A stretch of 64,000 nt of DNA from a virus. This document shows positions 14,703-49,688 of this stretch, piece after piece. A program made the position numbers and the translations under genes. The stretch is taken from positions 1 to 64,000 of IMG/VR virus record IMGVR_UViG_3300036886_000043. One strand, written 5' to 3'. Numbering within the stretch: the stretch's first letter is position 1; every line of letters begins with the position of its first letter. The notes beneath the pieces are model-generated. The model had not been told where the DNA came from, made no database searches, and saw nothing but the letters and a program-made list of their open reading frames with translations.

Positions 14703-15047
14703 ATGGCAACTGAGAAATTCGCAAACGAAGTAACGAAGTACGAGAACATCGCGCTTGAGCAATGGAACGATCTCAAGGCCGTTCTCTTGAAAGCCTTTCG
14801 ACTTCCCATCCAGCAGAACCAAGCGAAGGTGCAGTGGGGCTCAACGGTTTACGAGTGGGATACCGGAGTGTTCGAGTGGGACTTCCACCAGAACGACAAC
14901 CCGAACCCGGACAAGATTCCCAACACCTACTACCTCGAAATCCGCATCAAGCGGCGCCCGGCTGACCCGGCGGAGTTGGCAATCGAGAGCACGATTGCCA
15001 CGTTCTTCAAGAAGGTCACCGACAAGCAAAAGCGCAAGGAGCCCTAA
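14703..15047 (+). CDS. Hypothetical protein
   Basis: AGGAG RBS. Confidence 0.65.
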   Translation: MATEKFANEVTKYENIALEQWNDLKAVLLKAFRLPIQQNQAKVQWGSTVYEWDTGVFEWDFHQNDNPNPDKIPNTYYLEIRIKRRPADPAELAIESTIATFFKKVTDKQKRKEP

Positions 15048-37980: not shown

Positions 37981-39014
37981 TGGAAAACATTCTAGTAACG
38001 GGCGGCGCGGGGTTCATCGGGAGCCATTTGACGGACTACCTGCTCAACCAAGAACACAATGTTGTAGTCCTCGACGACCTCAGCGGAGGGTTCAAGAAGA
38101 ATCTCGAATTTCTACTTTCCGGCAAGTCGTCTGACGAGCCAATTGTGAGGAGGGACTGCATTTTTGTTAAAGGGTCCATCCTCGACGTTCCGCTGGTGGA
38201 CAAGTTGTTCGACCAGTATCGTTTTTCTCGTGTCTACCATCTTGCAGCATACGCAGCGGAGGGGCTTTCTCACTTTATCAAGCGGTTCAACTACCAGAAC
38301 AATCTTATCGGTTCGGTGAACCTCATCAACGCGGCCGTAAAATACGGGACGGAATGTTTTGTGTTCACTTCTTCAATGGCCGTGTACGGGTCGGCCCAAG
38401 TTCCATTTGATGAAAGCATGAGGCCGGCGCCGGAGGACTCCTACGGAATTGCCAAGTATGCGGTAGAGCAGGAATTGGCAATCAGCAAAGATGTGTTCGG
38501 ATTGGACTATGTGATATTCCGTCCGCACAACGTAATTGGAGAGAGGCAGAATATCGGCGACCCCTACCGAAACGTAGTCGGAATTTTCATGAATAAAACT
38601 CTCTTAGGGGAGCCCATGACCATCTTTGGCGACGGAGAGCAGGCCCGAGCTTTCAGTTACATCGGGGACATCGTTCCCACGATTGCGGACTCCCCCTCTA
38701 TTTCGGCGGCAAGGGGGAATATCTTCAACATTGGCGGAGACACGCCCTGCACCATCAATGAACTGGCGAATCTTGTTGCGGAGGCTATGGGTGTTGAAAA
38801 GAAAGTGGTTCACCTGGAAGAGAGGCATGAGGTAAAGTACGCCTACTGCAATCATGACCGAGCCGCCGAAACATTCAACTATGCGCCGCGAACATCGTTG
38901 CGCGATGGGATCTCTCTGATGGCGGAGTGGGTTAAGAGGCATGGTTCGCGGCGGGGAAAGGATTTTGACGGCATTGAAATTACAAAGAATTTACCGACTT
39001 TCTGGAGGAGATAG
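37980..39014 (+). CDS. NAD-dependent nucleotide-sugar epimerase/dehydratase
   Basis: TGGAGFIG, HLAA, SSMAVYG, YGIAK. Confidence 0.92.
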   Translation: MENILVTGGAGFIGSHLTDYLLNQEHNVVVLDDLSGGFKKNLEFLLSGKSSDEPIVRRDCIFVKGSILDVPLVDKLFDQYRFSRVYHLAAYAAEGLSHFIKRFNYQNNLIGSVNLINAAVKYGTECFVFTSSMAVYGSAQVPFDESMRPAPEDSYGIAKYAVEQELAISKDVFGLDYVIFRPHNVIGERQNIGDPYRNVVGIFMNKTLLGEPMTIFGDGEQARAFSYIGDIVPTIADSPSISAARGNIFNIGGDTPCTINELANLVAEAMGVEKKVVHLEERHEVKYAYCNHDRAAETFNYAPRTSLRDGISLMAEWVKRHGSRRGKDFDGIEITKNLPTFWRR

Positions 39015-45081: not shown

Positions 45082-45153
45082 ATGAGATTTGACCGCAACA
45101 GTTTATGCCTCTCCTATTCACTCCTGTCGAGTGACGGGGAGGCTGCGGTCTGA
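45082..45153 (+). CDS. Attenuator leader peptide 1 MRFDRNSLCLSYSLLSSDGEAAV
   Basis: 11 consecutive Ser/Leu/Cys/Tyr codons; precedes terminator and the Leu/Cys/Ser/Tyr tRNAs. Confidence 0.8.
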   Translation: MRFDRNSLCLSYSLLSSDGEAAV

Positions 45154-46405: not shown

Positions 46406-46434
46406 TTGTCAACACGGAAGAGTAGTGGTATACT
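46406..46434 (+). promoter_or_regulatory. Internal promoter for fMet/Asp/Glu tRNAs, no leader peptide or terminator
   Basis: TTGTCA-17-TATACT with TGn extension. Confidence 0.7.
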
Positions 46435-46439
46435 GAAAT

Positions 46440-46514
46440 CGCGGGTTGGTAGCGCAGCGTCATACGTCAGGCTCATACCCTGAAGATCCGGTGCAAATCC
46501 GGTACCCGCAACCA
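46440..46514 (+). tRNA. tRNA-Met(CAT), initiator-like
   Basis: C1:A72 mismatch; TCAGG-CTCATAC-CCTGA. Confidence 0.8.
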
Positions 46515-46809: not shown

Positions 46810-46878
46810 ATGAAAAACCGAGTCAATCACGGATTTACACCAGCGACGGCGCAACCGACGCAGGGTAATCCTATGTAG
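46810..46878 (+). CDS. Attenuator leader peptide 2 MKNRVNHGFTPATAQPTQGNPM
   Basis: Contains codons for all 12 downstream tRNAs; followed by antiterminator/terminator. Confidence 0.85.
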   Translation: MKNRVNHGFTPATAQPTQGNPM

Positions 46879-47424: not shown

Positions 47425-47441
47425 GAATTGGAAGGTGAGTG

Positions 47442-47978
47442 ATGAATTTGATGCGGAAGCCGGTATTGCAGTTGAATGCAAGCTACGAGCCGCTTCGCAT
47501 CATCGCGGCAAGAAGGGCATTGACGCTCATAACCAAGGGCGTAGCCGTGGTGGAAGTGCCAACCAGCACAGTAGTCTATCCTGGCATCTACTTGCCCTCA
47601 GTGATTCGGTTGCGGACTTACCGGCATGTGCCTATTAGGATGCAGGTGATGAGCCGCAAGAACATTCTCCTTCGGGATGGCGGCCGCTGCATGTATTGCG
47701 GACAGAGGTCAAACGAATTGACGCTTGACCATGTGATTCCGCGTTCCCGTGGCGGATTGAATACGTGGGACAATCTTGTGGCTTGCTGCAAACGCGACAA
47801 TCACAAGAAGAACGACAGGACTCCAGAGGAAGCGGGAATGAACTTGATTCACAGGCCGCTTCCGCAAACGATCCACACGCCGCGGTTTGTTCTACGGTCT
47901 ATGGGTTTGGAAGTAAATGAGTGGAGCCCGTACTTGTGGGCCGACTCCGAAGGCGACAAGAAGTATGCGTTTAACTGA
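47442..47978 (+). CDS. HNH endonuclease (McrA/COG1403-like)
   Basis: VLQLNASYEP, PSVIRL, RD...CMYCG...TLDHVIPRSRGG..TWDNLVACC...N. Confidence 0.92.
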   Translation: MNLMRKPVLQLNASYEPLRIIAARRALTLITKGVAVVEVPTSTVVYPGIYLPSVIRLRTYRHVPIRMQVMSRKNILLRDGGRCMYCGQRSNELTLDHVIPRSRGGLNTWDNLVACCKRDNHKKNDRTPEEAGMNLIHRPLPQTIHTPRFVLRSMGLEVNEWSPYLWADSEGDKKYAFN

Positions 47979-48546: not shown

Positions 48547-48575
48547 TTGCAAGAAAAGAAAAGTTGATGTACAGT
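48547..48575 (+). promoter_or_regulatory. Promoter of tRNA block 3
   Basis: TTGCAA-17-TACAGT; ATG 7 nt after the -10. Confidence 0.75.
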
Positions 48576-48582
48576 GGAATTC

Positions 48583-48651
48583 ATGCAGATCAGGACCAAA
48601 CACGGAATAACCAGAATGACCAAGCGGGTCATTTGGGGGATCGTGTGTTGA
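48583..48651 (+). CDS. Attenuator leader peptide 3 MQIRTKHGITRMTKRVIWGIVC
   Basis: Contains codons for all 12 downstream tRNAs; stop codon overlaps antiterminator strand. Confidence 0.85.
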   Translation: MQIRTKHGITRMTKRVIWGIVC

Positions 48652-48677
48652 GGGTCTGAGCATTTTGGTACGCACAG

Positions 48678-48702
48678 ACCTTCGCTCAGGCGAGGGTTTT
48701 TT
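48678..48702 (+). terminator. Attenuator terminator 3
   Basis: ACCTTCGC-TCAG-GCGAGGGT + T-run; alternative pairing 48650-48658 with 48675-48683. Confidence 0.85.
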
Positions 48703-48718
48703 ATTGCTCTTTGAAAAT

Positions 48719-48793
48719 AGGGGAGTGCTGGCGGCACAGCGGTTGGTCTCCAAAACCAACGTCACGGCGGTTCGAGTCCGCTCTCCCCTGCCA
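48719..48793 (+). tRNA. tRNA-Trp(CCA)
   Basis: TTGGT-CTCCAAA-ACCAA; G73. Confidence 0.85.
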
Positions 48794-48798
48794 TTTTT

Positions 48799-48867
48799 GG
48801 CACGTACCCAAGGCGGGAAGCGATCCTCATAAGATCGTAAACTGGTTCGAGTCCAGGCGTGCTACCA
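48799..48867 (+). tRNA. tRNA-Met(CAT) elongator (or Ile2), compact D-arm
   Basis: CGATC-CTCATAA-GATCG. Confidence 0.72.
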
Positions 48868-48872
48868 GTTTT

Positions 48873-48966
48873 GGGCGATAGCACCGGCCGTGCGGCGGAG
48901 TCTTATAAACTCTGGAGAGCGCCAGATTAGCGCAACGGGAAGGATCGACACCTTCATCGCCTACCA
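48873..48966 (+). tRNA. tRNA-Ile(TAT) with long variable arm
   Basis: GGAGT-CTTATAA-ACTCT; extra GCGC/GCGC stem; CCA. Confidence 0.72.
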
Positions 48967-48969
48967 TGT

Positions 48970-49044
48970 GGGTCGCAGATGTTTTTGGCGGCATACCCGG
49001 CTCTTACCCGGAATGGCGGGGTTCGACTCCCCGGCGACCCACCA
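48970..49044 (+). tRNA. tRNA-Lys(CTT)
   Basis: Loop CTCTTAC. Confidence 0.85.
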
Positions 49045-49053
49045 TCTGTTTTC

Positions 49054-49127
49054 GGACTGCGAGTGTGATGGTGCATAACGCCCTTTTAAGGCGTTTGGAT
49101 AGAGTTCGATTCTCTAGCGGTCCACCA
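49054..49127 (+). tRNA. tRNA-Lys(TTT)
   Basis: ACGCC-CTTTTAA-GGCGT. Confidence 0.85.
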
Positions 49128-49128
49128 T

Positions 49129-49203
49129 GGCCCTATAGCTCAAGGGGATAGAGTGCGGTCTTCTAAGCCGTCGATCACCGTTCGACTCGGTGTAGGGCTC
49201 CCA
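49129..49203 (+). tRNA. tRNA-Arg(TCT)
   Basis: GCGGT-CTTCTAA-GCCGT. Confidence 0.9.
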
Positions 49204-49208
49204 GTTTT

Positions 49209-49285
49209 GCCGCTGTATCTCTCCGGTTTCCTAAACCGGCAAGAGTAGTTGGATGACGCCGGTTCGACTCCGGCCAGCGGCCCCA
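49209..49285 (+). tRNA. Non-canonical tRNA-Arg(CCT) lacking a 5' D-arm
   Basis: 7-bp acceptor, 7-nt linker, CCGGT-TTCCTAA-ACCGG, 18-nt extra region, canonical T-arm, CCA. Confidence 0.7.
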
Positions 49286-49290
49286 GGTTT

Positions 49291-49368
49291 GCTGCCGTAT
49301 TCGGTTCTGGTTCCGAACCAGAGGGCCGTAGATGGAGAAGGCAGGTTCGAGTCCTGTCGGCAGCGCCA
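49291..49368 (+). tRNA. Non-canonical tRNA-Arg(CCG) lacking a 5' D-arm
   Basis: 7-bp acceptor, 8-nt linker, TCTGG-TTCCGAA-CCAGA, 18-nt extra region, canonical T-arm, G73, CCA. Confidence 0.7.
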
Positions 49369-49373
49369 GTTTA

Positions 49374-49449
49374 GCCGGGTTCGCCCAAAGGCTTAGGGCC
49401 GATGGTCTACACCCATCTGATAGGGGTTCGAGTCCTCTACCCGGCACCA
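49374..49449 (+). tRNA. tRNA-Val(TAC)
   Basis: GATGG-TCTACAC-CCATC. Confidence 0.88.
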
Positions 49450-49454
49450 AGATT

Positions 49455-49528
49455 GTCGATGTAGCTCAGTGGTAGAGCACCGCAATGGTAATGCGGCGAC
49501 GAGGGTCCGATTCCCTCCTTCGGCTCCA
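49455..49528 (+). tRNA. tRNA-Thr(GGT)
   Basis: CCGCA-ATGGTAA-TGCGG. Confidence 0.88.
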
Positions 49529-49532
49529 TTTT

Positions 49533-49607
49533 GCCGATGTAGCTCAATGGCAGAGCATTCGCTTGATAAGCGAAAGGTCAGTGGATCAGTACCACTCATC
49601 GGCACCA
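49533..49607 (+). tRNA. tRNA-Ile(GAT)
   Basis: TTCGC-TTGATAA-GCGAA; atypical T-loop. Confidence 0.88.
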
Positions 49608-49613
49608 AGTTGA

Positions 49614-49688
49614 GCGGGATTAGCCAAGTGGAAAGGCAATGGGCTTCCAACCCATTATGCGTCGGTTCAACCCCGACATCCCGCTCCA
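49614..49688 (+). tRNA. tRNA-Gly(TCC)
   Basis: ATGGG-CTTCCAA-CCCAT; U73. Confidence 0.92.

Follow-up and report, generated by a model that had tools for sequence, protein, structure and literature searches.

What decides when a phage makes the tRNAs that it encodes? The purpose of phage tRNAs has been debated for decades and their regulation is hardly known. The locus considered here lies in the IMG/VR virus record IMGVR_UViG_3300036886_000043. The stretch analysed here (the window) is the first 64 kb of this record, whose complete genome of 97,230 bp with direct terminal repeats is that of a tailed phage from peat soil, encoding a terminase, a portal protein and a major head protein. Between 45.2 and 49.7 kb, flanked by two large structural genes, lie 35 tRNA genes, all on the + strand, and this array contains three leader/terminator units, each with its own tRNA block. 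In the third of these, unit 3, a promoter, a short open reading frame (ORF) and a terminator precede 12 tRNA genes. We consider it likely that unit 3 is a conserved leader-peptide (ribosome-mediated) transcription attenuator, which senses tRNA supply and sets the output of the tRNA operon; production of these tRNAs is probably restricted to times when ribosomes are slow to decode the codons of the block. The observations that carry this reading are the anatomy of the unit, its alternative pairings, its conservation, and the match between leader codons and block anticodons.

Anatomy of unit 3

Because the elements follow each other in the order promoter, ORF, terminator and tRNA genes (Table 1), the tRNA genes can be reached from the unit-3 promoter by read-through only. 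The -10 box ends 7 nucleotides (nt) upstream of the start codon, and the leader mRNA is therefore probably leaderless, with a predicted transcription start at or next to that codon. The corresponding distances in units 1 and 2 are 6 and 10 nt. The leader ORF, exactly as quoted in the original prediction, reads ATG CAG ATC AGG ACC AAA CAC GGA ATA ACC AGA ATG ACC AAG CGG GTC ATT TGG GGG ATC GTG TGT TGA. Behind it, block 3 holds the 12 tRNA genes named earlier, in the order Trp-CCA, Met-CAT, Ile-TAT, Lys-CTT, Lys-TTT, Arg-TCT, Arg-CCT, Arg-CCG, Val-TAC, Thr-GGT, Ile-GAT and Gly-TCC, ten of them detected by ARAGORN at default settings and two Arg genes by our own scanner.

The whole leader element folds more stably than shuffled sequences (z = -4.4), and the fold consists of a leader rod and the terminator. 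In the predicted fold, the first codons of the ORF (region 1) close the base of the rod by pairing with region 2, and the rod is capped by the inner hairpin AATGACC/GGTCATT, which had been noticed before and is recovered by both scan and fold; this hairpin may serve as a pause hairpin for RNA polymerase. Alternatively, region 2 forms a predicted duplex of -18.6 kcal/mol with region 3. Within this 2:3 duplex, 48650–48658, overlapping the stop codon, pairs as proposed with 48675–48683, whose last bases belong to the 5' arm of the terminator.

Table 1. Positions in the window of unit 3, its tRNA block and other features named in the text
Feature	Position	Strand	Description and basis
Unit 3 control region	48547–48718	+	promoter, leader ORF, terminator/antiterminator, followed by 12 tRNA genes
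Promoter, sigma-70 type	48547–48575	+	-35 TTGCAA (48547–48552), 17-nt spacer, -10 TACAGT (48570–48575); read from sequence
Leader ORF (leader 3)	48583–48651	+	22 codons and TGA; putative sensing element
Region 1	48583–48600	+	first codons of the ORF; pairs with region 2 at the base of the long leader hairpin; minimum-free-energy fold with 48649–48663
Inner hairpin	48615–48633	+	at the tip of the leader rod; scan and fold
Region 2	48649–48662	+	antiterminator 5' strand, from the stop codon on; duplex prediction
Region 3	48671–48684	+	antiterminator 3' strand, shares 9 nt with the terminator 5' arm; duplex prediction
Intrinsic terminator	48676–48705	+	10-bp stem, 4-nt loop (hairpin 48676–48699), T run; scan and fold
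boxA-like motif	48705–48717	+	between terminator and tRNA-Trp; only pattern match in the window
Block 3	48719–49688	+	12 tRNA genes; calls of tRNA finder and own scanner
tRNA-Ile(TAT)	48873–48966	+	94 nt
tRNA-Arg(CCT)	~49209–49285	+	own scanner
tRNA-Arg(CCG)	~49291–49368	+	own scanner
Leader 1	45082–45153		leader of unit 1
Leader 2	46810–46878		leader of unit 2
Initiator-like tRNA-Met	46406–46514	+	C1:A72 mismatch
HNH endonuclease gene	47439–47978		between Thr-CGT and Thr-TGT in most related arrays
Short ORF	38758	+	inside a nucleotide-sugar epimerase gene region

Codon content and conservation of the leaders

Under strict wobble rules, the 12 tRNAs of block 3 read 16 codons, which make up 26.6% of the codons in the long ORFs of the phage. 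In leader 3, block 3 reads 17 of the 21 codons between start and stop (18 if Val-UAC is allowed to decode GTC; binomial P = 3e-7 for 17). All 12 block tRNAs are covered, in accordance with the original prediction, and such full coverage occurs in 4.5e-5 of random codon strings; among the 285 ATG ORFs of 18–30 codons in the 97-kb genome, leader 3 ranks first both by codon share and by coverage. The codons AGG, AGA, CGG, AAA, AAG, ATA and TGG occur once each, and the earlier notion of an index of the block roughly holds, but homologous class-3 leaders cover between 9/10 and 15/15 of the distinct anticodons of their own blocks, and a few codons of leader 3 (CAG, CAC and the last one) look structural rather than sensing. 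Leader 2 behaves like leader 3, with 16 of 21 codons read by block 2 and 12/12 tRNAs covered, and leader 1 has 8 block codons out of 22 (13.5% expected), with an excess of those Leu, Ser, Cys and Tyr codons that its block reads. Set against the blocks that are not their own, the three leaders match at or below expectation.

We note that a short ORF at 38758 takes second rank for block-3 codons (67%, 11/12 tRNAs), a match that is probably due to chance.

Relatives of the locus were reached by two routes. The neighbouring 1113-residue protein led to L005 (78% identity) and L014 (53%), both of which carry this array; in several closer relatives the array is missing, and only a promoter and an initiator-like tRNA are left. 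An alignment search with an HNH endonuclease gene of the array gave 39 viral contigs, of which 32 have tRNA genes (6 to 39 each), in an order strikingly conserved across most of these HNH-marked arrays. In most of them, a script that requires a terminator just upstream of a tRNA gene and a short ORF before the terminator recovered the same three leader classes. A blastn search of isolated phages returned scattered tRNA similarity only, and two DNA-pattern scans of viral contigs recovered only contigs already known.

Unit 3 is also present in 14 related phages that are uncultured and in Tunturi_5 (PP885688.1). The latter is a cultured Tunturiibacter phage, a jumbo phage of an acidobacterium, and has the same array order and all three leaders, unannotated in its record. 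As Tunturi_5 infects an acidobacterium, it provides a lead to the host of the window phage. The Tunturi_5 paper reports 43 tRNA genes, and its passages on tRNAs give no regulatory element.

The leader ORF, on whose conservation in relatives the original prediction had staked itself, is kept in the 15 distinct aligned units that form the unit-3 set (alignment A3, including the window) and in Tunturi_5, together with the stop codon at the antiterminator, the terminator and the tRNA block. In the consensus fold of the 15 units, six of the nine pairs of the terminator stem show compensatory changes. The 2:3 duplex, as stable as the terminator, is predicted in all 15 units at -15.7 to -21 kcal/mol (terminator hairpins, -12.6 to -18.8) and occupies 7–9 nt of the terminator 5' arm in each of them. 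Region 2 starts at the stop codon in 11 units and just inside the ORF in the other four. The 1:2 pairing at the base of the rod is present in the minimum-free-energy folds of most homologs, with weak duplex z-scores (mean -1.2). Codons 2 and 3 and the His codon are not read by the block, and pairing of the first codons with region 2 would explain why they are nevertheless conserved; the arms of the inner hairpin are almost invariant in alignment A3.

The spacing within the unit bears on whether the ORF is translated. Inside the ORF, the distance between two conserved landmarks is 33, 36, 39 or 42 nt in 14 of the 15 units, the landmark of the exception being non-homologous, whereas stop codon and terminator are 30, 31, 32, 33, 35, 36 or 37 nt apart, with no 3-nt period. 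Since the ORF is kept and indels are in frame only inside it, the leader shows signs of translation. In many members of units 2 and 3, the -10 box ends 6–10 nt before the ATG or GTG, and others have a Shine–Dalgarno sequence instead; leaders would often be leaderless mRNAs. A promoter like that of unit 3 (-35, 17–18-nt spacer, -10, and ATG/GTG 6–10 nt on) is found in L040, L042, L048, L051, L052 and L060. Most class-2 leaders of relatives have 6–7 nt between -10 and start codon, and a leaderless leader mRNA looks like a shared design.

Pooled over loci, class-1 leaders carry block-1a codons at 162 of 314 positions, class-2 leaders carry block-2 codons at 192 of 311 (two loci have no defined block), and class-3 leaders carry block-3 codons at 213 of 346; the pooled leader-by-block matrix is diagonal, with low off-diagonal counts. 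The strongest argument for the match between codons and blocks is the choice among synonymous codons for amino acids whose isoacceptors are split between blocks, compared between class-2 and class-3 leaders by Fisher's test. For Thr, the ratio of ACA/ACG to ACC/ACT is 37:15 in class 2 and 3:46 in class 3 (P = 7e-12); for Gly, GGC/GGT to GGA/GGG is 21:8 and 4:32 (P = 5e-7); and for Arg, CGA/CGC/CGT to AGA/AGG/CGG is 23:5 and 6:37 (P = 1e-8). All three codon-group ratios are near 1:1 in long ORFs. Class-2 leaders, in addition, keep both Gln codons, ACA together with ACG, and CCA together with CCG, in a residue order that is scrambled between phages.

Leader content also follows changes in the block. 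Leaders of class 3 have on average 4.0 Asp codons where block 3 contains Asp-GTC (n = 3) and 0.15 where it does not (n = 13), and the corresponding means for Glu codons with and without a Glu tRNA in block 3 are 1.75 and 0.25. Block 3 of Tunturi_5 has Asp-GTC, Val-GAC, Arg-ACG and two Glu tRNAs as extras, and its leader 3, of 49 codons, contains six Asp codons, four GTC/GTT and six CGC, plus Glu codons. The AT-rich phage L062, an independent lineage in which the tRNA order is unrelated and the tRNAs are partitioned differently, shows this design too and has two units; in its leader A, 21 of 27 codons belong to its own block (P = 6e-5) and 11 of 12 tRNAs are covered, and leader B covers 10 of 10.

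A proposed switch and its competitors

Unit 3 combines the features by which an attenuator is recognized, namely an ORF between promoter and genes, a terminator after the ORF, an antiterminator at the stop codon, and cognate regulatory codons. Whether the ORF is translated, where transcription starts, which way the switch works and what triggers it physiologically are matters that we infer from sequence, as follows. Host RNA polymerase would initiate at the promoter, with the transcript 5' end at or beside the start codon, and a ribosome could load once this end emerges. When decoding is fast, the ribosome would arrive at the stop codon and mask region 2, so that the terminator forms and transcription stops before tRNA-Trp; when no ribosome loads, region 1 would pair with region 2 and the terminator would form again. 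When a charged cognate tRNA is scarce, the ribosome would be delayed within the ORF and would keep the leader rod from closing, so that region 2 could pair with region 3; this pairing would block the terminator and allow the 12 tRNA genes to be transcribed. The new tRNAs would ease the delay, closing a negative feedback loop. The scarcity could arise from a low host supply, from high demand late in infection, or from cutting by a host tRNA nuclease, and each of the three units would be tuned to its own block. Since charged cognate tRNA, by its concentration, governs the delay, the unit would measure the supply of exactly the species that it controls. In Salmonella, hisR mutations lower the level of tRNA-His and thereby derepress the his attenuator, which indicates that such switches respond to the amount of a tRNA.

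Several observations weigh against this reading. As the sequences in the pooled statistics are related, the P values treat them as more independent than they are. In leader 3, no covariation is seen between Thr-GGT and ACC/ACT or between Ile-TAT and ATA: L014 has neither tRNA, yet its leader retains ACC, ACT and ATA, and four phages with Thr-GGT in block 2 still have ACC in leader 3. Glu codons also occur in the leader of L056, for which no Glu tRNA gene was detected. The leader of L042 ends in Glu and Asp codons, but the Asp and Glu tRNAs predicted in its block 3 were not found, the complete block consisting of the same 12 tRNAs as in the window; as these tail codons are located in region 2, they are probably structural. 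RNA pairing also constrains much of the leader, the third codon positions within the inner hairpin being invariant, and part of the codon conservation is therefore likewise structural. Transcription–translation coupling and leaderless initiation in the host are assumptions. Finally, the switch cannot distinguish a missing tRNA from an uncharged one.

This last point bears on the first competitor, in which the architecture is the same and the evolved signal is amino-acid starvation, perceived as uncharged tRNA, as in biosynthetic operons. A stalled ribosome is blind to the difference, and starvation sensing is the established behaviour of trp/his-type attenuators; however, amino-acid starvation is not eased by extra tRNA, which would leave a loop without benefit, and the leaders divide the Thr, Gly and Arg codons among themselves according to the isoacceptors in their own blocks, a partition by tRNA species rather than by amino acid. 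We regard starvation as the evolved signal as unlikely.

Somewhat harder to sustain is the idea that the terminators merely insulate the tRNA units, or serve processing or stability, and that the short ORFs are untranslated by-products of conserved RNA structure. The unit-3 terminator sits downstream of block 2 and would also halt unit-2 transcripts, and in some stretches of the leader the nucleotides themselves are conserved. Insulation leaves unexplained, however, why unit 3 has its own promoter upstream of the terminator, why indels are in frame inside the ORF only, why the stop codon lies at the antiterminator in 11 of 15 homologs, why codon content tracks block content across rearranged arrays, and why class-2 leaders keep composition but not order; we hold it to be quite improbable.

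That the leader ORFs encode small functional peptides has very little in its favour. The C-terminal half of class-3 leaders is fairly well conserved, but the conserved stretch coincides with the inner hairpin and region 2. Selection on the class-2 peptide is ruled out, because composition is kept and order scrambled, and what sets the three peptide classes apart is exactly the amino acids of the tRNAs behind each. A chance match in a random short ORF, for which it can be said that short ORFs are plentiful and that the 38758 ORF comes close, is rejected by the codon statistics given above (codon share, full coverage, and rank 1 of 285), by the pooled matrix and covariation, and by the match of all three units to their own blocks in a pattern kept in at least 16 phages, and its probability is negligible.

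The attenuator reading can be extended, tentatively, to the biology of infection. It is possible, and we would not put it higher than that, that the three units together monitor the tRNA pool in three channels and act as an inducible counter-defence, in which depletion of a tRNA species by a host anticodon nuclease or a phage-triggered tRNase stalls the matching leader and releases a burst of replacement tRNAs. Unusual anticodon loops or the missing D arm of some phage tRNAs might confer resistance to cleavage. At the array locus, relatives encode RtcB (L005, 18185–19411), PNKP and a T4 Rnl1-type ligase (L003, 13575–15601), or a Ro60-like TROVE/vWA protein (L014, 17750–19662), the last preceded by a tRNA-like, possibly Y-RNA-like sequence of ~500 nt. 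These RNA-repair and quality-control genes fit a setting in which tRNA damage matters. A profile search of the phage's own genome for RtcB (PF01139) found none; the search for an Rnl1-type ligase (PF09511) gave no match, but control genomes were unmatched too, so that absence is not shown.

If the counter-defence reading is true, these units would be the first sensor by which a phage detects tRNA-targeting immunity. If unit 3 is an attenuator, phage tRNA supply would be homeostatic and demand-driven rather than constitutive, and a mechanism would connect tRNA arrays with mismatched codon usage and with host defences that cleave tRNAs; textbook attenuation would be extended to RNA genes and to the sensing of single isoacceptors. 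For annotation, leaders would predict which tRNAs share a transcript, and, as reporters of natural origin, they could show how fast chosen codons are decoded. For tests, Tunturi_5 and Tunturiibacter psychrotolerans X4BP1 offer a cultured pair.

The tRNA array and its likeness to known systems

Of the 35 tRNA genes of the array, ARAGORN at default settings finds 28, and relaxed settings, mitochondrial mode and our own scanner for acceptor, T arm and anticodon add seven (Cys, two Ser, an initiator-like Met, Thr-TGT and two Arg without a D arm). The latter two, Arg-CCT and Arg-CCG of block 3, appear as partial versions in the mitochondrial mode of ARAGORN and as weak tRNA-clan matches in Rfam. 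Both have an 18-nt variable region and are missed by standard tRNA finders. Arg genes lacking the D arm also occur in L005, L014 and L048, and Arg(TCT) is built in the same way in L005 and L048. The tRNA-Ile(TAT) gene has a very long variable region and is often missed or miscalled by tRNA finders, as are its homologs, which are present in L005, L048, L051, L054 and L057. In several arrays, tRNA-Met and tRNA-Ile(TAT) have between them a segment of ~60 nt that is conserved and structured but is not a tRNA (L041 15394–15455, L051 17418–17480, L060 13419–13486, L040 13631–13745).

Two HNH endonuclease genes interrupt the array. The one listed in Table 1 is a marker for the array type and has ~2500 homologs at E<=1e-20, some on contigs of >100 kb and one source-labelled as an acidobacterium. 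The initiator-like tRNA-Met has a strong promoter of its own, without leader or terminator, and the same promoter and gene are the sole tRNA gene of array-less relatives (L002 6190–6305, L003 15610–15720). The window stretch is found in many peat metagenomes; the 20 listed runs comprise 19 from peat and one from permafrost, and are apparently DNA.

The boxA-like motif after the unit-3 terminator is absent from units 1 and 2 of the window. It agrees at 10 of 11 positions with the gamma-proteobacterial consensus GYTCTTTAANA (10.1101/091223), with G instead of A at position 8. By chance alone, 0.34 such motifs would be expected per window. The motif is kept just upstream of tRNA-Trp in every leader-3 unit (L005, L014, L039–L060) and is also present in unit B (~14795–14806) of the unrelated AT-rich array of L062, with a family consensus of about TG[CG]TCTTTGA[CA]AA. 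It may be a Nus-factor loading site for polymerases that read through the terminator. A TTGA(C/A)A motif after the terminator was considered as a -35 box and rejected, as there is no -10 box at a usable spacing and the boxA-like reading fits better.

Among known systems, the leaders of amino-acid operons (trp, his, leu, phe and the multivalent thr and ilvGMEDA) have a promoter, a short translated leader, 1:2, 2:3 and 3:4 pairings and an intrinsic terminator, the arrangement proposed here for unit 3. In both, the regulatory codons correspond to what the operon supplies, and the multivalent leaders mix codons of several amino acids. The differences are that unit 3 would regulate tRNAs rather than enzymes, that its leader uses about a dozen codons once to three times each in place of runs of one codon, that it would tell isoacceptors of one amino acid apart, and that many of its members are apparently leaderless. 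Between 44500 and 50000, the Rfam leader families (Trp, His, Leu, Thr) and the T-box (RF00230) give no match at E<=1. The leader peptide of the pheST attenuator (pheM) controls phenylalanyl-tRNA synthetase; like unit 3 in the reading proposed here, it acts on a component of the translation apparatus by leader-peptide attenuation, and unlike unit 3 it concerns one amino acid and a protein product, with no tRNA genes downstream. T-box riboswitches share with the proposed unit-3 switch the sensing of the state of a specific tRNA through the choice between terminator and antiterminator, but they bind uncharged tRNA directly and need no ribosome, whereas unit 3 has a conserved ORF instead. In boxA–Nus antitermination of rrn and lambda (10.1101/091223), as in unit 3, a boxA or boxA-like motif heads an untranslated RNA operon.

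Full-text literature searches found no paper on leader-peptide attenuation of tRNA genes. Phage tRNAs as a counter-defence against tRNA-cleaving host systems are the subject of papers (PMC10264068, PMC11555353) which, by their titles and abstracts, treat what the tRNAs do, whereas unit 3 would decide when they are made. Common ground with that setting is a near-complete tRNA set in a phage and, in relatives of the window phage, RNA-repair genes at the same locus. The nearest published case is the long tRNA array (trn operon) of Anabaena sp. PCC 7120, which is induced under translational stress (PMC8421152) and controlled by TrcR, a repressor acting at direct repeats that overlie the -10 box (PMC10272220). 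As in our reading of unit 3, its supernumerary tRNAs are silent until translation is impaired, and it is linked to rtcB, as in relatives of the window phage. Its control, however, is by a protein repressor, and the words attenuation, leader and terminator are absent from both papers. In sum, unit 3 would be a variant of leader-peptide attenuation, new in acting on tRNA genes.

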